64,000 bases of DNA from Planctomycetota bacterium (lineage in GTDB: Bacteria; Planctomycetota; UBA1135; UBA2386), in the NCBI GenBank assembly GCA_965228735.1, contig OZ245838.1, positions 704,001 to 768,000 on the forward strand, written 5' to 3'. Each line of letters starts with the position of its first letter. Within the stretch, counting starts at the first letter, position 1. The translations under genes were made by a program, and so were the position numbers. Below, one piece after another: positions 4,101-40,449 of the stretch. Below the pieces are notes generated by a model, which did not search any database, was not told the origin of the DNA, and saw nothing but the letters and a program-made list of their open reading frames with translations.

Positions 4101-4964
4101 GAGGTGCTGCAGGGCCCGCCGTTGCCGCCCGACGAGGTGCAGCTCTATGCCGACCTCGCGTGCCAGTGGGACGACCCCGAGTTCGACGCCAGCGAGGCGA
4201 AGAAGGAGGTCAAGGTCCTGCAGTCGCAGAAGGACCGCCTCGGTTCGGTCAACCTCGATGCCGTGCGCGAGCTCGAGGACGAGGAGGGCGAGTTCGGCAA
4301 CACGGAGCAGGAGGTCGCGGACCTCAAGGAGGCGCGGCGCGCGCTGCTCGAGACGCTCAAGACGCTCGAGACCGAGTCGCGCACGCTGTTCGAGGCGACG
4401 TTCCACGCGGCGCGGAAGAACTTCCAGGAGCTGTTCCGCAAGCTGTTCCAGGGCGGCCGCGCCGACATGTTCCTCGGCGAGGCCGAGGACATGCTCGAGG
4501 CCGGCATCGAGATCGTGGCGCAGCCGCCGGGCAAGCAGCTGCAGTCGATCAACCTGCTGAGCGGTGGTGAACGTTCGCTCACGGCGGTTGCGATCCTGTT
4601 CGCGCTGTTCAAGGTGCGGCCGAGCCCGTTCTGCATCCTCGACGAGGTGGACGCCGCGCTCGACGACACGAACGTCGAACGCTTCCTGCGCGTGCTGCGC
4701 GAGTTCATCGAGGACACGCAGTTCTGCATCGTGACCCACCACAAGCGCACGATGGCCGAGTGCCAGGTGCTCTACGGCATCACGATGCAGCGCCGCGGCA
4801 TCAGCTCCCGCATCGCGGTCGCGCTCGCTCAGGTCGACAGCTTCCAGGAAACGGGCGAGCTCGACGGCGACGAAGGCGCCGGCGCCAACCCGGCCGTGCA
4901 GCGCGGCGGCGTCGACCCGGCGCTGAAGCAGCGCATCGCCGGCGAAGAGCACATCGGGTTCTGA
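1146..4964 (+). CDS. smc: Chromosome segregation protein SMC
   Basis: GFKSFAD, Walker A GPNGCGKSN, long coiled coils around a hinge, signature LSGGERS, Walker B/D-loop ILDEVDAALD, IVTH. Confidence 0.98.
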   Translation: MRLKRLVARGFKSFADRTEFEFDSRLTGIIGPNGCGKSNVVDAIKWVLGDQRAKSLRGTAMTDVIFKGAEGRPALGMAEVTITFESPEERNGRTEIDISRRLTVDKESTYLLNGEQVRLKDVRDELLDTGLGTGGYSVMEQGRIDAVLSANPEARRAIFEEAAGISRFKLQKKEALRKLERTDQNLARATDLLEERARRIRSLRIQAGKARRWRELQAELRDLRAALAVLDGRQLRAETETIRERLGELQQEHGAAEEGGRASAAELAIADEAIVAAANALEAVQAELSTARNELTSHTERAEAQGQRASDLDAEIERGRQRVRAIHDQQQERRGELTEAQQDLASRESDLIAIHRDLEEQRKSVQSALDAMRALQSEREQLRERQLDLLHRRTRSRNLASDASAKIAAVRGREQRLDERREVLGDETGSIDRDVATWREQLTELSTRERILGEREQRALSDLEVADAAAAELAQRESDLRRDLSQVEGRQQALQAMEAHMEGLDEAPRYVLEKQPPGLRGRLLDLIEIDLEHGVALEAALGPFVQALVVDTREHAAAIVRDLAEQRLGRVLLLVEEAFGEQPRGGSTLLTPPTGANYLTDLVRHVLEGEADDDGVIAPNTGSERLMAWLLRGVVLADFDIADSARADLCFVTPDGTLVCGPRMEGGAVAEGHAGLVVRKSQIQRLGEEAAELEERLDAQRVDKDTAATRVARLKRELKELGHGLQAVRRLRQEAEGEVTRLAARRRDVDNELGELALEAAELRRTESGALGRLGVALFDQFLLSRMEQAVEADDSALDERVRAAEQASKAEQDKEQELRLKQVQTGEAREGLVRSIRVHEAALEDLERAGQEVEDRQLDAESDRDRAQQEQQRLQDLATEVSEHVEGLELQKGERQTTLDDARTARGRVQQQVHEWEQRRSLASEQLTQARLQLADVEHRFSRLEDRLREDTRIELLRCLGEVRGIGLIDQRGFVGPPARSGVVEVLQGPPLPPDEVQLYADLACQWDDPEFDASEAKKEVKVLQSQKDRLGSVNLDAVRELEDEEGEFGNTEQEVADLKEARRALLETLKTLETESRTLFEATFHAARKNFQELFRKLFQGGRADMFLGEAEDMLEAGIEIVAQPPGKQLQSINLLSGGERSLTAVAILFALFKVRPSPFCILDEVDAALDDTNVERFLRVLREFIEDTQFCIVTHHKRTMAECQVLYGITMQRRGISSRIAVALAQVDSFQETGELDGDEGAGANPAVQRGGVDPALKQRIAGEEHIGF

Positions 4965-4999
4965 GCACGGTTGCTCGCGGAGCGAGCAAACGTGCTCAG
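4961..4999. repeat. Inverted repeat/hairpin at the smc stop (REP-like or terminator)
   Basis: ctgagcacg-g-ttgctcgc-gga-gcgagcaa-a-cgtgctcag; followed by a second small hairpin gcgctccttcggagcgc. Confidence 0.6.
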
Positions 5000-5119
5000 G
5001 GCCTCGCCGCGCTCCTTCGGAGCGCCGCTTCGGTTCTGAAGGCCGGGTGCGAACCCGGCAGATCGTACCGGGTACCGTACGGGGTCGCGCGGTACCGCCA
5101 TCGGCGTAGGCTGTTCGGC

Positions 5120-7486
5120 ATGTTGCGCCGTCACCTGTCGCTGGTCCTCACGCTCGCGTTGGCTGCTTGCTCGGCGTCGCCGCCGCGCGTGTCGCACGAG
5201 GACCCGGCGCTAGCGCGGGTGACGGCGGATCTGCGGCCGTACATCCTGCGGCAGATCAGTGAGATGGGGATTCCGGGGGCGTGCATCGCGGTGCTCGACG
5301 TCGATCCCGTGACCGGCGAAGAACGGTATTGGGTCGAGGGTTTCGGCTACTGCGACGCGGCAGCGGCGGAGCGCGGGATGCGCAACACGATGCCGACCGG
5401 CGACCCGGCCTTGCCGGCCAACGCCGTGCATCGCGTCGCGTCGATCAGCAAGTTGTTCACTGCCACAGCCGCGATGGTGCTCGTCGAACGCGGTCAGCTC
5501 GACCTCGACGTGCCGGTGTCGCGCTACTTGCCGGAGTTCCAGCCGCACAACCCGTTCGACGGGGACATCACGCTGCGCCACCTCATGGGGCATCGCGCGG
5601 GCATCGTGCGCGAGTCGCCCGTCGGGCACTACTTCGATCCGGACGAGCCGACCCTCACTGCGACGGTTGCGTCGCTGAACGGCACGTCGCTCGTCCACGC
5701 GCCGGGCAGCAAGATGAAATACAGCAACCCCGGCGTGGGCGTGGTCGGCGAAGTGGTCGCGCGGGTGACCGGCAAGTCGTTCGAGGACGCCGTCCGCGAG
5801 CTCGTGCTCACGCCGCTCGGCATGCACGACAGCGACTTCGCCGAACGGCCGGATCTCGTCGCGCGCCAACCCCACGGCGTCATGTGGACCTACGACGGCC
5901 GCGACGTGCCGACGCCCGACTTCCAGTTCGGCTACTCGTCGGCGGCCAACCTGCGGAGCACGGTCTTCGACCTGGCGCGCTTCGCGCGCAGCTGGTTGCC
6001 CGACGCGAAGCAGCGCGTGCTTCGCCGCGAGACGCAGCTGCGGATGTGGGCGTTGCCGCCCGGGGAGACGCGCGGCTGCGGACTCGGCTTCTTCATGAAC
6101 GAGATCGACGGGCGCCGCACGGTCAGTCACGGCGGCGCGGTCTACGGCTTTGCCTCGAACCTCACGGCGATGCCCGACGACGGGCTCGCCGTCGCGGTCG
6201 TCGTCACCAAGGACTTCTGCAACGACGTCGCGGATGCGATCGCTCGGCGCGCCCTCGAGGCGGCGATCAAGAACCGCGAGGGCGAGTCGCTGGATCCGCC
6301 CGTGTACCCGCAGCCGGTCGGGCGCGACCGGGCCCGGAAGCTGGCCGGCACGTGGCTGTGCGGCGAGGACTGGGTCCGGCTCTACGAACGCGATGGCGAA
6401 CTGATCTACGACCCGAACATCGGCGTTCGGACGCGGCTGCGCGTCATGCCGGACGGTCGGATGATCGGCGACGATCCGCTCGCGATCGGCGGGCGCGTGC
6501 TGCGCGAACTCGAGAACGGCAACCTGCACGATGGCATGGTCGAGTATGTGCGCGACACCAGCGTGCCCGCGCCGTGCCCGGCGGAGTTGCTGCCGTACCT
6601 CGGCGAGTACGGCTGGGAGCACAACGTGCTCATCGTGTACGAGGACCGCGGCCGGCTCGGCGTGCTCATCGAGTGGGTCATCCGCGACATCGTCGACCCG
6701 GCTGGCGACGACCGCTTCGTGTTCCCGGGCGGCATGTACCGCAACGACCAGCTGCGCTTCGAGCGCGACGAACGCGGCGAGGTCGTAGCCGCGGTCGTCG
6801 GCGGCGCGCGGTTCCCGCGGCTGCCCGGACCGACCGCGGGTACGTTCCGCATCGATCCGGTGCGGCCGATCCCCGAACTCATCGAGGAAGCGCGCGCGAG
6901 CGTCGGTCCGCCCGCGCCCGGTCCCGCACGGCTGCGCGACTTCGATCTTCTCGACCTGCGCGCGATCGGCGACACGCTGAAGCTCGACATCCGCTACGCG
7001 TCGGACAACAACTTCCTCGGGCACGCGATCTACCCCGAGGCGATCGCCAAGATGCAGCGGCCCGCGGCGGGGGCGCTGAAGCAGGTGCACGAGCGCCTCG
7101 CGGAGCAGGGTCTCGGCCTCGTGATCTTCGACGCCTACCGGCCGTGGTGGGTCACCAAGGTATTCTTCGACGCGACGCCGGAGTCGATGAAGCACTTCGT
7201 CGCCGACCCGGCGCACGGCTCACGCCACAACCGTGGCTGCGCCGTGGATCTCTCGCTGTATCACCTCGACTCCGGCGAGGTGATCACGATGCCGAGCGGC
7301 TACGACGAGTTCACGGCCCGGGCCTACCCTGACTACGTGGGTGGCACGTCACGCCAGCGCCACTACCGCGAGGTGCTGCGCCGCGCGATGGAGGACGCCG
7401 GCTTCACCGTGTACGAGTACGAGTGGTGGCACTTCGACTTCCACGAGTGGCGGCGGTATCCGCTCGGGAACGAGGTGCTGAAGTAG
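5120..7486 (+). CDS. Lipoprotein: serine hydrolase (beta-lactamase family) fused to a D-Ala-D-Ala dipeptidase (VanX/DdpX-like, M15D)
   Basis: Lipobox LAAC; SISK (SxxK), YSN and HGG motifs; C-terminal DIRYASDNNF, FDAYRPW, SRHNRGCAVDL, EWWHFD; start refined to ATG 5120. Confidence 0.88.
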   Translation: MLRRHLSLVLTLALAACSASPPRVSHEDPALARVTADLRPYILRQISEMGIPGACIAVLDVDPVTGEERYWVEGFGYCDAAAAERGMRNTMPTGDPALPANAVHRVASISKLFTATAAMVLVERGQLDLDVPVSRYLPEFQPHNPFDGDITLRHLMGHRAGIVRESPVGHYFDPDEPTLTATVASLNGTSLVHAPGSKMKYSNPGVGVVGEVVARVTGKSFEDAVRELVLTPLGMHDSDFAERPDLVARQPHGVMWTYDGRDVPTPDFQFGYSSAANLRSTVFDLARFARSWLPDAKQRVLRRETQLRMWALPPGETRGCGLGFFMNEIDGRRTVSHGGAVYGFASNLTAMPDDGLAVAVVVTKDFCNDVADAIARRALEAAIKNREGESLDPPVYPQPVGRDRARKLAGTWLCGEDWVRLYERDGELIYDPNIGVRTRLRVMPDGRMIGDDPLAIGGRVLRELENGNLHDGMVEYVRDTSVPAPCPAELLPYLGEYGWEHNVLIVYEDRGRLGVLIEWVIRDIVDPAGDDRFVFPGGMYRNDQLRFERDERGEVVAAVVGGARFPRLPGPTAGTFRIDPVRPIPELIEEARASVGPPAPGPARLRDFDLLDLRAIGDTLKLDIRYASDNNFLGHAIYPEAIAKMQRPAAGALKQVHERLAEQGLGLVIFDAYRPWWVTKVFFDATPESMKHFVADPAHGSRHNRGCAVDLSLYHLDSGEVITMPSGYDEFTARAYPDYVGGTSRQRHYREVLRRAMEDAGFTVYEYEWWHFDFHEWRRYPLGNEVLK

Positions 7487-9594: not shown

Positions 9595-9636
9595 GGGGCG
9601 GGTCGCGGCGGGCCGTTGTGCTACACTCACCGCCCC

Positions 9637-11505
9637 GTGAGGATCAAGGCCAGACATCACGCCATTGCGACGACCGCAGTCCTCCTGCTGTTCTCGTTCG
9701 GGTTGTTCTCGATCGGGCAGCTCACCGCCCAGGCGCCCGGCTCGGATCGCGCGCGCCCGACGGCCGCGAGCATCCGGGCGGCAGAACGGGCGATGAGCCG
9801 GGTGATCGCACGCAGCCCGCACGTGCACGGCAACGTCCTCGACGTCAAGCTCCGCGAGGGCACCGGCGCCGAGCTGCGTGGTGGCCGACTGCACTCACGG
9901 ACGGGCGCCGATCTGGGGGCGGTCCAGGCCGCGTTCGATGCCGCGATGACGGTGCGGCCGCTGTTCACCGCCGCGCCGTGGGACGAGCTCGATCGCCTGC
10001 ATCGCACCGCGTGCGAGAACCTCGCCCGGCAGGGCTGGCCCGCGCATCAGCGCCCGGGTCATCTCGGGCTCTGGTTCGAGCTCGAGTTCGCGACCGCCGA
10101 GGCTGCCGCGCTGTGGCACGAACGCCTCTGGGAGCTCTTGCTCGTCGATCACGTCGTCCACGCGGCGCGCCCCGTGCCGGCATCGGCGCACGCGCTGCCG
10201 CCGACCGCCGCGCCGCTGCCGAACGACATCCCGCCGCCGACTCCGCTGTTCACGGCGTTGCAGCAGACGCACGAAGCGACGCCGCACGGCCACGGCACGT
10301 GGCTGGCGCAAGGCGTGCTCGGCGCGCGTGGTCAGGGCGTCGGCATCGTCATGGTCGAATCGGAGTGGCACTACGACCACGAGGACGTCGCCGGGCTCGT
10401 GACGGCGAACGTGATCGGTCCGGTGCCGGGCTCGAGCACCCCGGACGCGCTGCACGGCACGGCCGGGGCGTCGATGTTGATCGCCGATCGCAACGCGTAC
10501 GGGATCACCGGCGTCGTCGACGAGAGCTCCGCGCGCTTCGTGTCGCAGCTGACGAACGGCGGGGTCCCGAACTCGCTGCTGCTCGCGGGCATCAACTCGC
10601 AGCCGGGTGATGTCGTGATGCTCGTCATGATGTTCCTGCTCGGCCAGAACGGGGCCCAGGACTGGGTCCCGTTCGAGCTGTTGCAGCCCGTGTTCGACGC
10701 GACGCTGACCCTGACGGGCAACGGGGTGCTGACCGCGGTATCGGCGGGCAACGGCGACAACAACCTCGACGACCCGCGGTTCTTCCGGCTGTTCGATCGC
10801 ACGTTCCGTGACTCGGGGGCGTTCGTCGTGACGTCCACCGTCGCCGCGCAGCTGAACAAGGCACCGTTCTCGAACTATGGCTCCCGCATCGATGCCAACA
10901 GCTGGGGCGACGATGTCATGGCGGCGGGGATCGGGACGCTGTTCTTCCCCAACCAGGACCGGCGTCAGGCCTACACGTCGGACTACACCGGGACGAGTTC
11001 GGCGGTCCCGTCGATCACCGGGATGATCGCCGCGATCCAGGGCGCCGCGGAGCTGCAGCTCGGGTCGCGCCTGACGCTGACGCAACTTCGGCAGCTCCTC
11101 TGGACCCACGGACCGCAGTCGCCGGACGAGATCAAGCGGCGGCCGGACCTCGTCGCGATCCTGCAGGCCATCGGGGCCAGCGATGGCCTCGCGGTCAGCC
11201 ATCCGGACCTGGCGTACGGAACCGCGGAGACGGTGACGGTGACCGGGCCGGCCGGCGGCGGGGCGTTCCTGTTCGCGGCGTTCGGGCGCGGTCACACGGA
11301 TCTCGGCTTCAACCGGCCGATCCACCTCGATCTGCCGTCGCTGCTCACGGTTGGATTCGCCCCGATGCCGACCGGATCGGCGGCGTTCTCGATCGCGATC
11401 CCGAGTGATCCGACGCTCGCCGGGTTGAGCCTCTACCTGCAGGCGGGTGTGCTGCAGGGCGGCGGGATCCACGTCACGAACAGCGGCCAGCTGACCGTCT
11501 GGTAG
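9637..11505 (+). CDS. Secreted S8 (subtilisin-like) peptidase with C-terminal lineage-specific domain
   Basis: Signal peptide; HGTA, SAGNG oxyanion and GTSSAVP motifs; GTG start at 9637 is more plausible than 8509. Confidence 0.85.
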   Translation: MRIKARHHAIATTAVLLLFSFGLFSIGQLTAQAPGSDRARPTAASIRAAERAMSRVIARSPHVHGNVLDVKLREGTGAELRGGRLHSRTGADLGAVQAAFDAAMTVRPLFTAAPWDELDRLHRTACENLARQGWPAHQRPGHLGLWFELEFATAEAAALWHERLWELLLVDHVVHAARPVPASAHALPPTAAPLPNDIPPPTPLFTALQQTHEATPHGHGTWLAQGVLGARGQGVGIVMVESEWHYDHEDVAGLVTANVIGPVPGSSTPDALHGTAGASMLIADRNAYGITGVVDESSARFVSQLTNGGVPNSLLLAGINSQPGDVVMLVMMFLLGQNGAQDWVPFELLQPVFDATLTLTGNGVLTAVSAGNGDNNLDDPRFFRLFDRTFRDSGAFVVTSTVAAQLNKAPFSNYGSRIDANSWGDDVMAAGIGTLFFPNQDRRQAYTSDYTGTSSAVPSITGMIAAIQGAAELQLGSRLTLTQLRQLLWTHGPQSPDEIKRRPDLVAILQAIGASDGLAVSHPDLAYGTAETVTVTGPAGGGAFLFAAFGRGHTDLGFNRPIHLDLPSLLTVGFAPMPTGSAAFSIAIPSDPTLAGLSLYLQAGVLQGGGIHVTNSGQLTVW

Positions 11506-22259: not shown

Positions 22260-23609
22260 ATGGCCGCCGAACCCGCACGCCCGCCGCGGCGCCTCCGCAA
22301 CTGGCTCATCGGGTTCGTCGTGCTGCTCGTGGCAGCGGTCTTCGGGCTCGAGTTCGCGCTGCGCACGCTGCTCGCGACGCCCGGGTTGCCGACTCCCGAG
22401 CGCGTCGCGGAGCTGGCGACCGCGGCCCGCGCCGAAGCCGGCGATTGGCGCGTCGATCCCGACCTCGGTCGGGTGCCCGTGTTGGCGCCGCGGAGTCTCT
22501 ACGGCGAGTTCGGGCTGCGCCAGGGTTGGCGAACGCGCGGCAACGTCACGACGAAGCGCGATGGCGTCGTCCGGCTGCTGCACCTCGGCGACGGTGTGAC
22601 GGCCCGCGCAGCCGTGCTGCAGCCGCTGCGCGAACTCTGGCGCGGCGGCGACGTCGAGTTCCTCAACGCCGGGGTGCCCGGGTTCGATCCCGCGGCGTCC
22701 GTCGCGTTCTATCGGCAGCATCAGCGCGATCTCGCGCCCGATCGCGTCGTCGTGTGGCTGCGCGCTGCGGCACTAACGACGCCGCTCGCCGGTTGCGTCG
22801 AGGGCGACGAGTTCGTGCTGTGCGCGCCCGGGTTTCGCGCCCCGGTCGATCCGGATTGGTATGCGAGCAGTGCGCTCTATCGCCGGTGGGCGCTGCGCGG
22901 CTGGGAGCCGGACGCGGGCGTGACGGCGGCCGCCCTGCAGCGCGCGGGGGCCGCGCTCGCGCGCTTGCGCGATGATCTCGCGGAGCGGGCCGTGCCGCTG
23001 GCCGTCGTGCTGCTGCCGGACCGTGGGGCGGGCGCAGGACGATCCGGGCTCGTCGGCGTCCTCGGTCAGCTCGGCATCGACTACCTCGATCTGCAGCCGG
23101 TCGCGGACGAGTTGAACGCGCGCAGCCCGGTGTTCACGGCGCCGGCGCCCGAGCGCCCGGGCGATCCTCCGCCGACGCTCGCGGCGATGCTCGCGCGCGC
23201 CGCCGCCGAACGGCTGCTGCCGGAAACGCCCGTGCGCGTGCTCGCGATGCCCCGCGTCGTCGGACCCGGGGATGCCCAGCAGGTCGTGGTCGAGGCGCCG
23301 CCCGAGTTCGCCGGCCGCCGCGTCATCCTCCTCGGTTCCGCGGCCGGCATCACGCCCGCGGCGGATCTCGGTCGTGGCCGCGTGCCGCTGCGCAGCGACG
23401 AGTATCTGACGCGCACCGCGGCGCGGGCGAACCCGCCGTTCGCGCAGGCGCTGGATGGTGATGGCAAGGCGACGTTCACCGTGCCCGTGCCGGGCGACGT
23501 GGCGGGGCCCGCGGTCGTCTGGCACTGCCCGGTCGTCTGCGACCGGCGTTCCGTGCACTTCGAACTCATCGGCTGGCCCGCGCCGATGATCGTGCGGGCG
23601 CCCGAGTAG
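22260..23609 (+). CDS. Membrane-anchored SGNH/GDSL-like protein (degenerate) with C-terminal lineage-specific domain
   Basis: TM helix; LLHLGDGVT (block I), EFLNAGVPGF (block II); C-terminal LDGDGKATFTVPVP domain. Confidence 0.65.
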   Translation: MAAEPARPPRRLRNWLIGFVVLLVAAVFGLEFALRTLLATPGLPTPERVAELATAARAEAGDWRVDPDLGRVPVLAPRSLYGEFGLRQGWRTRGNVTTKRDGVVRLLHLGDGVTARAAVLQPLRELWRGGDVEFLNAGVPGFDPAASVAFYRQHQRDLAPDRVVVWLRAAALTTPLAGCVEGDEFVLCAPGFRAPVDPDWYASSALYRRWALRGWEPDAGVTAAALQRAGAALARLRDDLAERAVPLAVVLLPDRGAGAGRSGLVGVLGQLGIDYLDLQPVADELNARSPVFTAPAPERPGDPPPTLAAMLARAAAERLLPETPVRVLAMPRVVGPGDAQQVVVEAPPEFAGRRVILLGSAAGITPAADLGRGRVPLRSDEYLTRTAARANPPFAQALDGDGKATFTVPVPGDVAGPAVVWHCPVVCDRRSVHFELIGWPAPMIVRAPE

Positions 23610-27483: not shown

Positions 27484-30378
27484 ATGCCCCGTATCCTGCC
27501 GCTGCTGGCAGTGACCGCCGCTTTCCTGCTGCTGCCGGCCTGTGACAACGTCGGCCGCGCGTTCGATCCCAGCGTCGATCCCCGCACCAACAACCCGACG
27601 ACGGGCGAATCCGTCGTCCAGGTCGTGCCGGCCGGCGGCGATGCACGCGAAGGCCGGCCGCGGATCCGCACGGTCGCACCCGAGGATGGCGGCTGGCCGG
27701 CCACGGTGCCGATCGTCATCGAGTTCAGCGAGAGCGTGAACGAGTCGTCCATCCTGCCGACGTCGACCACCGGCACCGACGGGCGGATCATCCTGCGCGT
27801 GGTCGGCACGACGACGCCGTTGCCGTGCCTCTACGACTTCCTCGCGGGCGGCCGGCTGCTCGTGATGCGGCCGGTGACCGAATTGTCCAACGAGCAGAGC
27901 CCGTTCTACGAGGTGGTGCTGCTGCCCGACGCCCGCGACGCGGACGGCGTGCGGTTCGATCTCGAGGACGAGGAGAACGGCGACGTGCTCACGACGTTCC
28001 AGGTCAACCAGGCGACGTCGATCACCGATGGTCGCATCCTCGCGACCTACCCGCGCGACAACCAGCGCGACGCGGCGCGCGAGACCAGCTACTTCGTCGT
28101 GTTCGACCGGCCGGCGAACGACGCGAGCATCTCCGAGGCGAACATGTTCGTGCGGCCGGCCGGCGGCACGGTGGTGACGGCCGATCCGGCGACCGCAGCC
28201 GAGATCGTCGGCCAGCCCGACACCCGGGTCTACGAGCTCGCGCCCGGGACGCCGTTCCTTGGCGATACGTCGTACGAGCTCGTGGTCGACGACACGATCA
28301 CGTTCGGCACGGACGGTGAACTCGACTTCCGCGGCCGCACGCCCTACGCGGTGTTCGACACGGTCGGTCCCGACGCGCCGACCGCGGTCACGATCGGCAA
28401 CCCGACGATGGGTTTCCCCGACCGGGTCAATCGCTTGAACCTCGGTGGCATCAACCTCGCCGTGACGACGTCGGCCGATGCGCGCGAAGGGGACACGATC
28501 GTGGCCCGGATCTACGGCTTCGACCCGGAGACCGCGACGATGGGCGACGTCGGTTTCGTCGAGAACACCGGTAGGGTGCCGGCACCGGGCGGCGTCCAGA
28601 CCGTGACGATCGACTTCACGGGGGAGCTCGGCACCGTGAGCAACCCGACGTTCGAGGACGGAGGGCTCGATTTCGCGGTGCAGATGCGGCGCGGCAGTGA
28701 GCAGTCCGGGTTCTTCCTGAACGAGGAAGGGGCGGCGCGGTTCGACCTCACGCCGCCGACGCTGACCTCGGCGGGGCCGCCCGGCGCCGGCAATGACATC
28801 TTCACCGACCTCGAGCACTTGAGCTTCCACGGCGTGGCGAACGAAGAGATCGCGGAGGCGATGCTCACGGACGGCGTCAACCCGGCGGCGGAGCTGTTCG
28901 GCAGCGCCGAGTCGGGTTACTTCACCGTGCGGCCGGTCAACCTCGGGCGGCTCGCGGGCACGCGCGGCTACACGCTGACGTTCACCGATACCGCGGGCAA
29001 CATGGTCGAGACCGCGGTCACGGGCACGATCGTGCAGCGCGGCACGGTCACGGGCGCAGTGCAGCCGAGCGGCACGCTCACGGTCGAGGCGTTCGACGAG
29101 GTGACGCTCGCGCCGATCGTCGGCGCGACGGTCGTCGTCGACCCCGGAGTGCCGACCTTGCCGGCGACCGGTCAGCTCACGATGGTCACGGACGGCGACG
29201 GGCTCGCGGTGTTCACCGGGCTCGCGGGGGCGACGCACACGGTCACGATCGCGGCTGCGGATTACGATCTCGTCACCCTCTACGAGACCGCGGCCGGGCG
29301 CGTCTCGCTGCCGGTTCGGCCCGCCGAGAACACGGCGACGTTCCGCGGCGCGGTGGCGTTCGAGGTCTCGCCCGGGATCACGGCCGCCGTCGGCCACAAC
29401 GGCTACGCCGATCCGTCGATCCTGGCGCTGCAGACGACCACCACGGACCCGCTGACGATCCCGTCGACTTCGATCTTCGCCGGCCGCCCACAGGTCGTGA
29501 CGGCGCTCGGCGGCGCGATCGAACCGACGATGGCTCCCGCGTTCTCGTTGCAGGGCTACGCGATGCTTGGACCGACGCTGCTCACGCCGGTCGCGGCGAT
29601 CGAGCCCGCCGACCCGGGCGGCACGACGACCGCCGCGGTCGTGATGCTGTCGAGCGCGGGTTCGACGGCCGAGATCGCGCCGGCCTACACCGAGGACTTC
29701 GCGCTCGCCAACGGGCTCGATACCGCCAATCTCGTCGGGGCGCCGGTCGTGCGCGTCATGGCGGGGCTCACCGGCTTTCACGGTCAGGTGCTGGCCGGAC
29801 TCGGCTATGCCACCGTGACGACCGGGTCCGCGTACACCGTCAACGCGACGTATGCGCAGGCTGTGCTGACGGGGTTCGGGGTGTTCGCGCCGTCGTTCTG
29901 GGTCGCGACCGAAGCGCGTGACACGGGCGGGCGGATCAGCCGCCACCGGTCGCTGATCAACACGACCAACTCGGTGCCGGTCAACCCGACCAACCCGCCG
30001 GGCATCCCGGTGATCACCGTCCCGGGTGGTCCGGCCACGACGGCGCCGCTCGTGACCTACAACGACGAGATCGCGCCCGGGCTCGTGCCGGGCGGTGTCG
30101 CGATCGCGGATCTCACGGCGACCGATAGCGCCGGGCGGCGCTGGCTCGTGCTGAAGTTCGACGGCGACGGCGCGGGTGGGACGGACAGCGTGCAGTTCCC
30201 GGACCTGGTCACCGCCGGTGTCACGGGGCTGCAGACCGGCACCTGGAGCGTGCGCGCGGAGACCCGGATCCTGTTGTCGATCACGGGCGCGACCGCGACC
30301 GACATCGTGCTGACCGAGCGGCAGCGCGCCGAGGCAGCTTACGCGCGGTCGGCCGCGCAGGACTTCACGGTCCAATAG
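27484..30378 (+). CDS. Large Thr-rich surface lipoprotein with Ig-like (Big_5-type) domains
   Basis: Lipobox LPAC; IVIEFSESVNESS, VVFDRP beta-rich repeats; alternative start 27466. Confidence 0.8.
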   Translation: MPRILPLLAVTAAFLLLPACDNVGRAFDPSVDPRTNNPTTGESVVQVVPAGGDAREGRPRIRTVAPEDGGWPATVPIVIEFSESVNESSILPTSTTGTDGRIILRVVGTTTPLPCLYDFLAGGRLLVMRPVTELSNEQSPFYEVVLLPDARDADGVRFDLEDEENGDVLTTFQVNQATSITDGRILATYPRDNQRDAARETSYFVVFDRPANDASISEANMFVRPAGGTVVTADPATAAEIVGQPDTRVYELAPGTPFLGDTSYELVVDDTITFGTDGELDFRGRTPYAVFDTVGPDAPTAVTIGNPTMGFPDRVNRLNLGGINLAVTTSADAREGDTIVARIYGFDPETATMGDVGFVENTGRVPAPGGVQTVTIDFTGELGTVSNPTFEDGGLDFAVQMRRGSEQSGFFLNEEGAARFDLTPPTLTSAGPPGAGNDIFTDLEHLSFHGVANEEIAEAMLTDGVNPAAELFGSAESGYFTVRPVNLGRLAGTRGYTLTFTDTAGNMVETAVTGTIVQRGTVTGAVQPSGTLTVEAFDEVTLAPIVGATVVVDPGVPTLPATGQLTMVTDGDGLAVFTGLAGATHTVTIAAADYDLVTLYETAAGRVSLPVRPAENTATFRGAVAFEVSPGITAAVGHNGYADPSILALQTTTTDPLTIPSTSIFAGRPQVVTALGGAIEPTMAPAFSLQGYAMLGPTLLTPVAAIEPADPGGTTTAAVVMLSSAGSTAEIAPAYTEDFALANGLDTANLVGAPVVRVMAGLTGFHGQVLAGLGYATVTTGSAYTVNATYAQAVLTGFGVFAPSFWVATEARDTGGRISRHRSLINTTNSVPVNPTNPPGIPVITVPGGPATTAPLVTYNDEIAPGLVPGGVAIADLTATDSAGRRWLVLKFDGDGAGGTDSVQFPDLVTAGVTGLQTGTWSVRAETRILLSITGATATDIVLTERQRAEAAYARSAAQDFTVQ

Positions 30379-34736: not shown

Positions 34737-35780
34737 ATGACGGAAGAAAACGACAACATCGATCCGAGCACGAACAACGCAACCGAGACCGAGATCGGTC
34801 TTGGCAAGGGCCTCGACGTCGGCACGGCCAACCTCGCGGCAGCCGTCCAGAACGAAGAGGGCGGCATCACGGTCAACGTCGAGCGCAACGCGTTCCTGGA
34901 CATCCCGAGCGACGTCTACAGCAAGAACATGCTGAGCAAGCTCAAGGTGCCGTACGTCGTGCACAACACGAAGCTCGTCGTGATCGGCGAGGCCGCGTTC
35001 GAGCTCGCCAACGTCTTCGGGCGCGAGACGCGCCGCCCGATGATGGACGGCCTGATCAGCCCGCAGGAGCAGGACGCCTTGCCGATGATGAAGATGATCA
35101 TCAGCAAGATCCTCGGTGAGCCGCAGGTGCAGGGTGAGAACTGCTACTTCTGCGTGCCGGCCGAGTCGCTCGACGTGGACAACAACATCGTCTACCACCA
35201 GGGCCTGTTCGAGACGATGATCAACAGCATGGGCTACCAGGCCCACGCCATCAACGAGGCGCACGCCGTGGTCTTCTCGGAACTCGCCGAGAACGACTTC
35301 ACCGGCATCGGCCTCTCGTTCGGCGGCGGCATGGCCAACGCCTGCATCGCCTACAAGTCGATCCCGTGCCTGTCGTTCTCGGTGGCGCGCGGCGGCGACT
35401 GGATCGACAAGAACGTGTCGGGCGTCCTCGGTGTGCCGCGCAGCAAGGCGACGCACATCAAGGAGCGCGGCATCGACATCCGCGATCCGAAGAGCCGCGA
35501 GGAAGAGGCCGTGGCGATTTACTACCGCAGCCTCATCAACTACGTGCTCAGCAACATCAAGACCCGCTTCGAGTCGGGCCAGAACATGCCGAGCTTCAAC
35601 GATCCGGTCGACATCGCCTGCGCGGGCGGCACGTCGATGATCGGCGGCTTCATCGAGGTCTTCCGCGACGAGTTCGCGAAGATCGACTTCCCGATCCCGG
35701 TCGGTCGCATCTTCCGCAGCGAAGAAGCCCTGACGGCGGTCGCGAAGGGCTGCCTGGTCGCGGCTGCGATCGGCGAGTAG
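34737..35780 (+). CDS. Actin-fold ATPase, volactin-like
   Basis: Phosphate-1 GLDVGTANL, connect-1 INEAHAVV, phosphate-2 SFGGGMAN, GGDWID, adenosine AGGTS, connect-2 AVAKG. Confidence 0.88.
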   Translation: MTEENDNIDPSTNNATETEIGLGKGLDVGTANLAAAVQNEEGGITVNVERNAFLDIPSDVYSKNMLSKLKVPYVVHNTKLVVIGEAAFELANVFGRETRRPMMDGLISPQEQDALPMMKMIISKILGEPQVQGENCYFCVPAESLDVDNNIVYHQGLFETMINSMGYQAHAINEAHAVVFSELAENDFTGIGLSFGGGMANACIAYKSIPCLSFSVARGGDWIDKNVSGVLGVPRSKATHIKERGIDIRDPKSREEEAVAIYYRSLINYVLSNIKTRFESGQNMPSFNDPVDIACAGGTSMIGGFIEVFRDEFAKIDFPIPVGRIFRSEEALTAVAKGCLVAAAIGE

Positions 35781-35891: not shown

Positions 35892-37244
35892 CTACCGCGG
35901 GCTCTTGGCGAGCTTCTCGCGCAGCAGCTCGAGCCCGCGCTCGAGGATCGGATCGCGGGTCTTCAGGTCGTCGGCCGTCGCCTCGACCACGACGTCGGGC
36001 GCGATGCCCTCGCCCTCGAAGCAGGTCCCGTCGGGCCGCAGGGCCTGCCAGCTCGGCAGCACGATCGTCACGCCGTTGCTCAGCTCGTGGGGCTTGGGGT
36101 TGCCGCTGCTGCCGTACGTCGGCTGGCCGACCTGCACGCAATCCGGGGCCTGGCGCATCATGAGCACGAAGGCCTCGTTGCTGCTCATCGCGTAGCGGCT
36201 CGTCAGGAGCGCGACCGGACCCGTGTAGCGCTCCTCGGGATTCGTGTGCCCGGTGATCGTGCGGTCGAGAATGCGGCCGAAGCCGTTCTTGCCGGCCCGC
36301 TCGCGGTAGCGGTTCCTGGCGTAGACCTTCTTGCCCTCGACGAACCACTCGGCGATGCGGATGGCCAGCAACTCGTTGCCGCCGGAGTTGACGCGGGCAT
36401 CGACGATCATGGCGCGGCAGTCGCGCATCGAGTCGAGGGCGTCCTCGATCGCGTCCATGTCGAGCGCGTCGGTCCACGAGGTCGTCATCAGATACCCGAT
36501 GCCGTCCTCCGTGCGGCCGTGGAGCGCGCGGTCGTTGCCGGCCGGTTTCACCGTCAGGTACTGGCCGAGGATGTTCGTCCGGATGAGCGGATCGACCGCG
36601 CGCCGCGCGGTCGCATAGTGCCGGTTCCCGAGCCGCAGGTAGACGTGGAGGTCGCCCGCCGACTCGAGCGTCCGGGCCACGGCGCCGGCCCAGCTCGCAT
36701 CCGTGGGGGAGGCGAGGATGGCCTTGCTCTTCGCCTTGAACTCCTTGCGCCAGTCGTCGACGCGCAGATCGTAGTACGAGTAGCGCCGGGCCATGACCTT
36801 CTGCAGCTCGTCGAGCGCCGCCTTGTTGCGCTTCTTCTGTTCGCGCGGATCGCGCAGCTCCGTCGGCAGGGTCGTGAACGTCCAGGCCACCGGCTCGAGG
36901 GCGACGCCGCGGGCGCTGCGGAAGTTCGTGAAGGTGTGGCTGTTCAGCCCGAAGCGGTACTCCTGATCGGCGTCGAGCTCGACGTCGATGACGAACGTCT
37001 TGCTGTTCTTCCATTTCACGCCCGTGATCTTGGGGAAGTTCGGGCCGCCGCCGACGACCGAGCGACCCTGGCCCATGGCCTGATCGAAGGTCACGACGAG
37101 CTGGGTGACCTCCTTGCTGTCGACGTCGAGTTGGCCGTTCGCCGGTGCCATCGACACGACGGTCGGTGGCTCCTGCGCTGGTGCGGCAGCGGGGGCGAGG
37201 GTGAGAACGGCCGGCAACAGCCAGCGGGCGCGCGATTCCGACAT
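35892..37244 (-). CDS. Secreted S41 family peptidase with N-terminal Ig-like domain
   Basis: Signal peptide; IVDARVNSGG, AMSSNEAF, VGQPTYGSSG, EGEGIAPD. Confidence 0.9.
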   Translation of the reverse strand: MSESRARWLLPAVLTLAPAAAPAQEPPTVVSMAPANGQLDVDSKEVTQLVVTFDQAMGQGRSVVGGGPNFPKITGVKWKNSKTFVIDVELDADQEYRFGLNSHTFTNFRSARGVALEPVAWTFTTLPTELRDPREQKKRNKAALDELQKVMARRYSYYDLRVDDWRKEFKAKSKAILASPTDASWAGAVARTLESAGDLHVYLRLGNRHYATARRAVDPLIRTNILGQYLTVKPAGNDRALHGRTEDGIGYLMTTSWTDALDMDAIEDALDSMRDCRAMIVDARVNSGGNELLAIRIAEWFVEGKKVYARNRYRERAGKNGFGRILDRTITGHTNPEERYTGPVALLTSRYAMSSNEAFVLMMRQAPDCVQVGQPTYGSSGNPKPHELSNGVTIVLPSWQALRPDGTCFEGEGIAPDVVVEATADDLKTRDPILERGLELLREKLAKSPR

Positions 37245-37401: not shown

Positions 37402-40400
37402 CTACGGCCCGAGCACCACCCGCACCCAGTTCGTGACCTCGCGGTCGACGAGGCTCACCGGATCGGCCGTGAACGCGGCGAACCAGACCTCGAGACCCGT
37501 GAGGAACGCGAGATTCGGGACGTCGACGAACGCGCTGGCCTGACCGTTCGAATCGAGGGTGCCGAGGAAGTTGCCGAACACCGGGCTCGCCGGGTTGAGG
37601 CTCGCGCCGATCAGGAAGCCGGGGCGCAGCGGCAGCAGGTTGCCGCCTATGAGCGGGATTCCGACGTCGTTGCCCTCGCTCGCGAGCAGCAGGTACAGCT
37701 GGCCGTTCTCGCCCGGAATAGTGAGATCGAGGTCGAGCCGTTGGCCGAGCGGCGCGTTCTCGCCGCTGCTCGTGAGCTCGCGCGGCTCGAGCAGGAAGGC
37801 GAGGCTCTGCTGCACGAGCCGGTCGCGCGCGCCGGCGTTCTGCATCGTGTCGAGCGGGAAGCCGAAGTGCACGACGCGGGCGCCGGTCACGGGATCGACG
37901 CGCTGAATGCCGGCGGCCTGGCCGTTGAAGTAGCGCAGGCAGACGTTGCCGCCCGTGCCGGCGGTCGGGCCGATCACGTCGGGGTAGTCGACGTCGTAGG
38001 TGCCGCCGGTGCCGTTGTCGAACGCGCTCGGCGGGATCCCCGCGGAGACGGTGCCCGCGATGCCGCCCATGAGTCCGTAGGTGTTGGCGTCATCGGCGAT
38101 GTAGGTCGCACCGATCTGGTTGCGATAGAACGCGCGGTCGCTCGCGGAGCCTTGCGAGTCGAGGTCCCAGCCGACCTCGGCGCCGGTCACGAGCAGCCCG
38201 CCGCCCTGCGCGAGGTAGGACTGCACGATGCTCTGCTCCGCCGCCGAGAACGTCTCGTCGGCCGTGCTCTCCTCACCGAGCGACCAGACGACGGCGCCGT
38301 AGGCCAGCGGCACGCGGCCGAGTGCGACGGCCTCGTTGGAGGCCGCATCGAAGCCGAGCGACGTGAACGCGCCGGCCCGGATCGAGCCGCCGATCAGTCG
38401 CAGGTAGTCGCGCGTGTTCTCCGGGCCCTTCACGTAGCGCCCGACGCGGTCGAAGCCCTGCACGAGCAGCGCCTGGGCCGTGCCGGTGTGATCCGTGCCG
38501 GCGGTGAGCACCTCGGTCGGGATCGATTGGCCCGAACCGTTCGTAGCCCGCACGCGGAACGAGCGCACGGTGTCGTAGGGCAGCGGGCCCGTCGACCAGC
38601 TCGTCGAGACGGTCGTGCCGGCCTCGACGAAGCTCTTGCCGTCCGGTGACCATTCGACGATGTAGCCGGTCGCGCTCGCGGCCTGGTCCCAGGCCACGAG
38701 CAGGCCGCGGCTGCCGTCCTGGGTCACGCGCAACGCGCGCGGCGGCTCGGGCACGAACGGCGCAGTCGGCGCGAAGTAGCGCATGATGCCGCGGGCGATC
38801 GCGCGGGCGCCGAGGTAGCGGAAGTCGGGGTCGTGCAGCGAGCGGTGATCGAACGAGCCGGCCGTGTCGTGGAACGCGAGCTCGAGCAGCACGCCCGGCA
38901 TCGTGCTCAGCAGGCGCACCTCGCCGAAGTTGGCCGATTGCTGGCCACGGTCGGTCCACGTCGCACTCCACTCGCTGCGCAGGTCGCTGATGATCTGGGT
39001 GTGGATGCGACTCTGCAACGTCGACGAGCCCGGCGTGGCGCCGCCCGAGTAGATGAACGAGCTCGTGCCCGCACCGCCGCCGGCGTTGGTGTGCAGCGAC
39101 ACGAAAGCGTCGGCGCCGCGCCACTCGGCGAACCGCGGGCGCGTCGTCACGTCATCGGCGTTGTCCTGGCCGGCCGTGTTGTAGACCGAGCTCGGCGCGC
39201 CGGCGAACTGCGTCCAGTAGCGGGCGCACTCCTGCCACCGCGGGCGACCGCTCGTGCTGCCGCCGCGGGCGATCGTGCCCACGCCGCCGCCGAGGCGCAT
39301 TGCGTCGGCGATCACGACGCCGCTGAGGAATGACTGGTTGCTGAGGGTGACCACCGCGTCGGACCCGGCGTCGAACCACCAGTTGCCGAGGTGGACCCAC
39401 GTGAGGTTGTCGACGGTCTGGTCGACCACGACCTCATCCGTTCCGGCCGCGTGCGTCACCCGGTAGAGCGCGGTCGGCGTGCGGTTGCCGCTCGCCCGGA
39501 ACCACGCGTAGATCGGATAGACGCCGCTCGTCGTCACCGGGATCGTCCAAGTTGCCGTGGCGGTCTCGGTCGGCGACGTGCCCGCGAAGCGGTACGTGCC
39601 GCCCAGGTAGCCCGAAGAACCGGACAGCGACCACGCGCCGTTCTCGGTGTAGCCGGGCGCGCCGCCGTCGTTGTCGGCGACGGCGTCGACGGTCAGCTCG
39701 CCGGTCTCGCGGCAGAGGATGACCTCGGCACCCATGTTTCGCAGCATCGGGATCAGATACCGGTTGCAGATCTCGGCGACGTGGATGTCTTCGAGCAGGC
39801 CGTCGATGAGCGGCCGTTGCGTTGTCCAGCCGAGCGTGCTGTGCCAGTAGTAACCGTGCCCGGGTGAGATCGCGATGCGGCGGCCGTTCAGAATGCCGCT
39901 CGCGACGCTCGCGGCCGCGGTCGAGCCCTGGCCGTTCTGTGGAACGTTCGGGCTCCGGTCGAGCGCGGGCCGTTGCCGCGCTGGTCGCTGCCGTGCTGGC
40001 GGGTGGCCGAGCAGCGTGCCGAGGTCGCTCTCCGTGCCGTCGGCGTTCTGGAGGCGCAGCTCGACGTGCTGGATGGCAGGGTCGGAGAGCGCGGTCTTCT
40101 GGATCTGCTCGAGGGCGTCTTCGCGCGCGGTCGCGGTGAGGAGGTCGGAAGTGAAGACCAGCGTCGCGCGGCCCGTGCCGTTCGGGTCGGTCGTGATCCG
40201 ACAGTCGACGAGCCGGGTCGCGCGGGGCACATGCGTCGTCCACCCGTGCGCGCGCTGACCCGCGTCGGGGCCGCGCAGCAGACGTTGGACTGCGGCCCGC
40301 GCGCCGGCATGCGTCGCGTCGTCCGCGACGAGCCCGCCGGCTTGGATGAACAGCGCGCGTTGCGCGGTCACCGCGCCGGTGGCGAGCGCGATGGCGCAGA

Positions 40401-40449
40401 TCGTCGCGAGGGTGCGGGGACGGGGTGAGGGTGCGGTGACGGCGAGCAT
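37402..40449 (-). CDS. Secreted N-acetylmuramoyl-L-alanine amidase (Amidase_3) with inserted golvesin-like domain, FN3 and C-terminal lineage-specific domain
   Basis: ISPGHG...LLED, FVSLHTNA, LLELAFHD; insert ending VVIADAMRLGGG; FN3 PRALRV...LVAWD...YIVEWS. Confidence 0.85.
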   Translation of the reverse strand: MLAVTAPSPRPRTLATICAIALATGAVTAQRALFIQAGGLVADDATHAGARAAVQRLLRGPDAGQRAHGWTTHVPRATRLVDCRITTDPNGTGRATLVFTSDLLTATAREDALEQIQKTALSDPAIQHVELRLQNADGTESDLGTLLGHPPARQRPARQRPALDRSPNVPQNGQGSTAAASVASGILNGRRIAISPGHGYYWHSTLGWTTQRPLIDGLLEDIHVAEICNRYLIPMLRNMGAEVILCRETGELTVDAVADNDGGAPGYTENGAWSLSGSSGYLGGTYRFAGTSPTETATATWTIPVTTSGVYPIYAWFRASGNRTPTALYRVTHAAGTDEVVVDQTVDNLTWVHLGNWWFDAGSDAVVTLSNQSFLSGVVIADAMRLGGGVGTIARGGSTSGRPRWQECARYWTQFAGAPSSVYNTAGQDNADDVTTRPRFAEWRGADAFVSLHTNAGGGAGTSSFIYSGGATPGSSTLQSRIHTQIISDLRSEWSATWTDRGQQSANFGEVRLLSTMPGVLLELAFHDTAGSFDHRSLHDPDFRYLGARAIARGIMRYFAPTAPFVPEPPRALRVTQDGSRGLLVAWDQAASATGYIVEWSPDGKSFVEAGTTVSTSWSTGPLPYDTVRSFRVRATNGSGQSIPTEVLTAGTDHTGTAQALLVQGFDRVGRYVKGPENTRDYLRLIGGSIRAGAFTSLGFDAASNEAVALGRVPLAYGAVVWSLGEESTADETFSAAEQSIVQSYLAQGGGLLVTGAEVGWDLDSQGSASDRAFYRNQIGATYIADDANTYGLMGGIAGTVSAGIPPSAFDNGTGGTYDVDYPDVIGPTAGTGGNVCLRYFNGQAAGIQRVDPVTGARVVHFGFPLDTMQNAGARDRLVQQSLAFLLEPRELTSSGENAPLGQRLDLDLTIPGENGQLYLLLASEGNDVGIPLIGGNLLPLRPGFLIGASLNPASPVFGNFLGTLDSNGQASAFVDVPNLAFLTGLEVWFAAFTADPVSLVDREVTNWVRVVLGP

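Follow-up and report, generated by a model that had tools for sequence, protein, structure and literature searches.

Profile comparisons confirm that the tails of three proteins encoded close together in a Planctomycetota genome, an amidase, an S8 subtilase, and an SGNH-like protein, are versions of one domain with two subtypes (18 and ~300 members). The domain is a real, large, and uncatalogued terminal module. A genome-wide HMM count gives about 344 proteins that carry it, far more than the three in which the preliminary description noticed it. New here is the behavior of the slot that it fills: as judged from homologous sequences, the slot is swappable among this domain, the T9SS CTD, and a dockerin-type tail.

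The window is a stretch of 64,000 nucleotides (G000:C1:704001-768000). Its source genome, G000 (7.19 Mb, 69% GC, 93% complete), yielded 5,312 genes with our own gene caller. Two further genomes recur below. G185 is a carrier genome of another family (2.4 Mb, 86% complete, 44 domain copies), of which 2.31 Mb was analyzed in 20-kb pieces, so that genes straddling the borders between pieces may have escaped notice. G015 belongs to the same order as G000 (91% complete, 49% GC, 240 contigs, 4% contamination). Signal peptides, including those with Q at +1, were called throughout by a lenient home-made heuristic.

Three carriers and one domain family

Re-reading the ORFs bore out the three genes and their tails where the preliminary description had placed them. 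The amidase (37402..40449, minus strand) has a signal peptide ending AQ (heuristic) followed by GerMN, Amidase_3, Golvesin_C, and fn3 domains (Pfam) and then the tail. This terminal Ig-like domain of the 18-member subtype (about 37402..37790, minus strand) matches the subtype profile at E 2.6e-29 (the profile includes the amidase tail) and is modeled by AlphaFold2 with pLDDT 95.1 and pTM 0.88. It is present in 119/120 listed amidase homologues, and the relatives of the amidase are nearly all in records titled Planctomycetota. Directly downstream lies a gene for an S41 peptidase that begins with a Big_5 domain and does not carry the tail (35892-37244, minus strand).

The S8 subtilase (9637..11505, plus strand; Pfam) also has a signal peptide ending AQ. 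Its true start is at about 9616-9637 (the GTG at 9637 was read by eye), and the database entry is 629 aa long. Its tail (about 11188..11502, plus strand) is a terminal Ig-like domain of the ~300-member subtype (profile E 8.6e-11; AlphaFold2 pLDDT 84.5, pTM 0.75).

The SGNH-like protein (22260..23609, plus strand) begins with a hydrophobic anchor and lacks an AQ cleavage site. A Pfam scan gives it no family; the name reflects a resemblance seen by eye, and its motif reads GDG at the position where GDS is expected in the SGNH family. The tail (about 23232..23606, plus strand) is an eroded copy of the 18-member subtype, as indicated by the convergence of amidase and SGNH-like profiles and by a weak G185 profile match at E 0.039. 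Among relatives, one has a full tail, two have eroded copies, and two more distant homologues have none, a pattern that would make sense if a protein already held by a membrane anchor gains little from the tail.

The window contains several other genes of note. One encodes a bacterial Volactin-family actin homologue (34737-35780, plus strand; PF25216, 273 bits, cut-off 35) and adjoins a gene of 321 aa for which Pfam has no family; a second, MreB/salactin-like actin is found in G000 at 6767480-6768559, with a similar neighbor and a ParA-like gene. Another (4760-7486, plus strand) encodes a fusion of a beta-lactamase-family serine hydrolase with an M15 D-Ala-D-Ala dipeptidase. A third (27484-30378, plus strand) encodes a large Big_5 lipoprotein-like protein, an architecture with several relatives of 870-1314 aa in G000, some of them clustered at 2689303-2703361.

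A shared motif order had been proposed for the three tails. The quoted motifs are present. In the S8 tail, LL-x-S-x-G and (L/V)PL are loose matches; in the SGNH-like tail, neither the G-L-x-hydrophobic strand nor the final N motif can be seen. Compared in pairs by BLAST, the tails are only weakly similar (amidase-SGNH E 6.6e-4, amidase-S8 E 0.27, S8-SGNH no match); profiles are significant, with the SGNH-like tail as a weak member. Started separately from the amidase and SGNH-like tails, the searches arrive at one and the same set of 18 G000 ORFs, in each of which the match finishes no more than 3 residues before the stop. A profile seeded by the S8 tail finds 313 G000 ORFs at E<1e-3, including the amidase, with the domain within 30 residues of the stop in 304. 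The large-subtype profile was built from fixed tails, a freely iterated search from the S8 tail having drifted; this ~300-member profile also matches the amidase tail (2.4e-6) and does not match the SGNH-like tail. HHalign joins the two subtype profiles with a probability of 94.5% and E 7.7e-8 over just 49 columns. A profile made solely of 35 G185 tails, with seeds chosen via G000 profiles, matches the amidase tail at 2.6e-14, the S8 tail at 3.6e-11, and 12/18 small-subtype members at E<1e-3 (reversed decoys: 0 at E<0.01, 1 at E<1).

AlphaFold2 predicts a seven-stranded Ig-like sandwich for both subtypes, about 110-130 residues long, in which a long hydrophobic insert separates strand 3 from strand 4. 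The structural comparison suggested earlier (Foldseek and VIA-align) returned generic Ig and macroglobulin (MG) domains alone, with best Z values of 9.3 and 10.6 tied with many others. Both models align over their full length to the same template residues (7op0_B 227-349; Z 9.3, rmsd 3.2, 105 aligned, and Z 10.1, rmsd 2.6, 101 aligned). The best matches are MG and Ig-like domains of complement C3/C5, alpha-2-macroglobulin, PECAM-1, and PirB, but identity is 4-19%, and dozens of unrelated Ig domains score as well as the top ones. The likeness is that of a common fold and carries no functional inference. A homodimer prediction of the domain scored 0.25 against a mark of 0.42, which speaks neither for nor against dimers.

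The tails have no significant match in Pfam, NCBIfam, or PDB sequences. A known carbohydrate-binding family, which the preliminary description had allowed for, did not appear: Pfam and PDB sequence searches were empty and the fold matches were generic Ig domains. In the ESM Atlas, one tail matches 30 unnamed Planctomycetota clusters at 0.96-0.97, and named clusters appear only below 0.9. A literature search that did not extend to subscription papers or to bioRxiv supplements, which may hold domain lists, found no description of the domain. It is likewise not described in the available portions of 10.1101/817700, 10.64898/2026.10.26.761892, PMC11285876, and PMC6461901.

Copies, cargo, and distribution

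With a threshold of E<1e-3 to a domain profile, 335 G000 ORFs are carriers, and nine more from the G185 profile bring the total to 344, about 6.5% of called genes. A 45-row domain profile gave 290 matches in G000 and none among reversed decoys. Every one of the 335 carriers has a single copy, never two. The domain ends within 25 residues of the stop in 316 and is followed by a 26-50 aa extension in 7; the remaining 12 copies lie directly after the signal peptide (11) or mid-chain (1). The label "C-terminal" given to it at first therefore holds for 316/335 and fails for those 12. Six G000 proteins consist of a signal peptide and the domain and nothing else (by eye). A subclass with a 35-45-aa beta-type extension after the domain (G000 ORFs 1672562, 4294128, 5417712, 646936, 5780, and 6752) looks like the domain inserted into the last domain of the cargo.

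The domain is strongly tied to Sec-type signal peptides, as far as the home-made heuristic shows, in agreement with the claim that the carriers are exported. A signal peptide with Q at +1 was called in 266/331 called carriers versus 631/3,256 non-carriers, and any signal peptide in 292/331 versus 1,657/3,256. Many of the 39 carriers without a called signal show one upstream of a miscalled start. No Tat motif was found in G000 carriers. By the same heuristic, glutamine comes right after the signal peptide in 986 G000 proteins, a pattern that resembles the Q-rule of Bacteroidetes for pyroglutamate.

The cargo is unrelated from carrier to carrier, as the first reading of three proteins had it: 303 cargo parts tested by BLAST fall into 118 clusters, and the largest paralogue groups have 76 and 29 members. 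A Pfam family was found in 26/42 scanned carriers, a non-random sample drawn from 49 in loci picked for carrier clusters. The families include Kelch, FG-GAP, Rax2/DUF5122, and sortilin/BNR propellers, arylsulfotransferase, GSDH, trypsin, and M14; such propellers, hydrolases, and peptidases are the kind of cargo that T9SS carries. Cargo is rich in T, S, N, and G and contains 0.6% lysine versus 2.8% in other signal-bearing proteins. The domain itself is hydrophobic (GRAVY +0.44) and low in charge: DEKR residues make up 8.2% of it, 15.5% of cargo, and 23.4% of other signal proteins. Paralogous copies are only 20-37% identical. Large-subtype proteins that have a cysteine ahead of the domain tend to have another in the insert (203 with both, 40 with neither, 74 with one; OR 6.6, from paralogues that are not independent), and the pair likely forms a disulfide.

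Among 251 genomes of the phylum, the domain is matched in 53, with multiple matches in 49 and one weak match in each of the other 4. This bimodal pattern agrees with a lineage-specific domain, as first supposed. The amidase tail is matched in 20/21 close relatives; the exception is G015, in which three profiles (the amidase tail and two broader ones) found no match. A broader profile found nothing in 25/26 chosen genomes, G185 being the positive. The large-subtype profile matches no fewer than 26,651 clusters of proteins (50% identity), yet the domain is unnamed in any library; in 150 listed clusters, the domain is C-terminal in 148 and N-terminal in 2 (by eye). Should the domain prove to be a mark of surface display, a single HMM would delimit the surface proteome in roughly one-fifth of the sampled Planctomycetota genomes. 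The group is almost uncultured, and its relatives change shape or prey on other bacteria, according to the available parts of 10.1101/817700 and 10.64898/2026.10.26.761892; G000 may belong to this clade.

Exchange of the terminal slot

The preliminary description compared the domain with the T9SS CTD, and homologues do fill the same slot with T9SS CTDs or dockerin-type tails. The S8 tail is present in 104/120 listed homologues (101/102 of the closest and 3/18 of the most distant). Three of those 18 most distant homologues end in TIGR04183 (24.5, 35.1, and 38.8 bits; cut-off 23), one has a dockerin-like tail (by eye), and the remainder have other domains or none.

The exchange with dockerin-type tails is seen in G015, which has 39 PF00404 matches versus 0-3 in 37 other genomes and 0 in G000. 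We fetched 30 of the 39 copies, and all 30 are C-terminal. When the ~485 residues beside each tail were compared with G000, 11/30 cargo parts had a match, and the best match was a tail carrier in 10/11, where tail carriers make up 27% of G000 AQ-signal proteins; the other 19/30 had no G000 match. One G015 cargo part is 49% identical to a G000 tail carrier, and the next gene is conserved too. The G015 tails (L288-L317) are an expansion of a near-uniform dockerin-type tail of ~75 aa, and no cohesin was found in this genome. Dockerin replacement comes from one genome and is a strong lead, no rule. The interchange points to protein-protein docking, and contrasting G015-type and G000-type genomes provides a direct handle on the receptor.

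Proposed export and docking in comparison with known systems

From cargo composition alone, we infer that the carriers are located on the outer surface. We lean toward reading the domain as a one-per-protein module for non-covalent surface docking on a lineage-specific receptor, likely exported through a secretin, and not as a cleaved T9SS signal. A single terminal domain is found on unrelated hydrolases and beta-propellers. These proteins are predicted to be exported by Sec, to be cleaved before glutamine, and to fold in the periplasm, the large subtype likely with a disulfide. The folded protein would then pass through a secretin, most likely that of a type II system. Finally, the retained, low-charge domain would bind one common partner, which would give each cargo one attachment point and let either terminus serve; docking would work as it does with dockerins.

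The secretin route is suggested by the outer-membrane channels common to G000 and G185, since the comparison turned up none besides BamA, an LptD-like protein (by eye), phosphate porins, TonB receptors, TolC-like proteins (by eye), and secretins, including a GspD orthologue. In this comparison 655/2,133 signal-bearing non-carriers of G000 match G185; 52/114 soluble or barrel-type best pairs were Pfam-scanned and barrels were ranked by a crude score. G000 has seven secretin matches, including type II, type IV pilus, and Tad (named by eye and gene context) and a double-secretin ExbB/ExbD cluster. As for a receptor, cohesin (PF00963) was found in 0/5 genomes, including the dockerin-rich G015, with the control detected; a diverged receptor would escape this search. 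No shared scaffold was obvious by eye among the 92/654 signal proteins with internal repeats. Large Big_5 lipoproteins were considered as candidate receptors, and six queries matched 13 G000 proteins, with one partial match in G185.

The domain could instead be an export signal for a dedicated, unrecognised outer-membrane translocon, functionally analogous to the T9SS CTD and perhaps cleaved off once export is complete. We consider this unlikely, although C-terminal placement in 94% of carriers, always as a single copy, is equally expected of an export signal. The TIGR04183 swap in S8 homologues and the T9SS-like cargo set also fit it, as does the predicted seven-stranded Ig-like sandwich, a fold that the available part of PMC11285876 gives for T9SS CTDs. 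A strict C-terminal signal of the T9SS kind does not agree with the copies after signal peptides, the internal copy, the seven extended ones, and the six stand-alone proteins; use of either terminus, insertion before an extension, and the stand-alone proteins suit a retained module over a cleaved C-terminal signal. PorV was not found in G000, with the positive control detected, and the one C25 peptidase lacks the tail and lies in an unrelated locus. Searches of G000 for SprA_N, PorP_SprF, and TIGR04183 gave no match, but their positive controls were silent too. As for co-occurring outer-membrane machinery, G000 and G185 share general channels, and their comparison revealed no large unexplained or dedicated barrel and no cognate machinery. 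One cluster (secretin-ExbD-ExbD-ExbB-TPR-TPR-secretin) is syntenic between G000:C1:6769699-6784599 and L164 in G185. The N-terminal part of its secretin matches 166/251 phylum genomes, usually twice, and the cluster is also in the domain-less G015, so we rejected it as too widespread to be dedicated.

Anchoring might also do without a receptor, the hydrophobic insert binding an outer-membrane lipid or glycan, or the domain forming an S-layer-like coat with stand-alone copies as filler. The hydrophobic, low-charge domain, its long insert, the stand-alone copies, and the empty receptor searches are consistent with this, but we give it a lower probability than the export signal. Envelope-binding modules (SLH, LysM, choline-binding) usually occur in tandem, and this domain never does; 20-37% identity among paralogues is much divergence for a lattice, and the dockerin-type interchange argues for docking between proteins. 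That the domain holds proteins back in the periplasm, with peptidoglycan or the inner side of the outer membrane as possible binding sites, is improbable: the GerMN-amidase and the N-terminally anchored SGNH-like protein could both be periplasmic, but cargo composition is unlike that of other signal-bearing proteins, homologues bear outer-surface T9SS tags, and on the anchored protein the tail is decaying. An inert role, as a folding or spacer unit multiplied through gene duplication, would fit the generic Ig-like fold and the large paralogue groups, but it is very hard to reconcile with 118 cargo clusters, a strictly single and terminal copy, and near-universal retention in the listed amidase homologues.

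We tentatively propose, as a broader possibility that we hold at less than even confidence, that a deep-branching group of Planctomycetota may run an undescribed surface display of T9SS scale. It would place an Ig-like tag on 5-7% of the proteome, use a dedicated receptor or a secretin-linked route, and have a tag replaceable wholesale by a dockerin-type tail, so that one slot could be filled interchangeably by the T9SS CTD, a dockerin, or this domain.

The domain resembles the type A CTD of T9SS (Por_Secre_tail, TIGR04183/PF18962, Bacteroidota) in its one copy per Sec-exported cargo, its place in the terminal slot of S8 proteins, and its similar cargo. A seven-stranded, Ig-like sandwich such as that of the CTD is predicted for our domain, and the two folds may be similar; no CTD was among the listed fold matches. 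It differs in being longer, in its hydrophobic insert, and in not being confined to the extreme C-terminus, with N-terminal, internal, extended, and stand-alone copies. TIGR04183, PF18962, and PF13860 match 0/45 and 0/54 tails, in searches with the same library that found TIGR04183 on three S8 homologues. We rejected membership in the T9SS CTDs based on this lack of a sequence match, the non-C-terminal copies, and the failure to find PorV.

Tails of the PEP-CTERM/exosortase and sortase types are also lineage-wide terminal tags on many exported proteins, and G000 encodes an exosortase (G000:C1:1004324-1006018, in an exopolysaccharide-type locus). Our domain is a folded domain and not a short motif, and a transmembrane helix with a basic tail was found in none of the 335 carriers by a hydropathy rule.

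The dockerin fold consists of Ca-binding helical loops. Type I dockerin (PF00404) is likewise one terminal module per exported enzyme and stands in for the domain on homologous cargo, but its sequence is unrelated to our predicted beta-sandwich, G000 has no PF00404 match, no dockerin family was among the matches of the domain tails, and no cohesin was found. A cohesin/dockerin "planctosome" of Nemodlikiaceae has been proposed as hypothetical in the available part of PMC6461901. By analogy, the domain would work like a T9SS CTD or a dockerin but fails membership of both.
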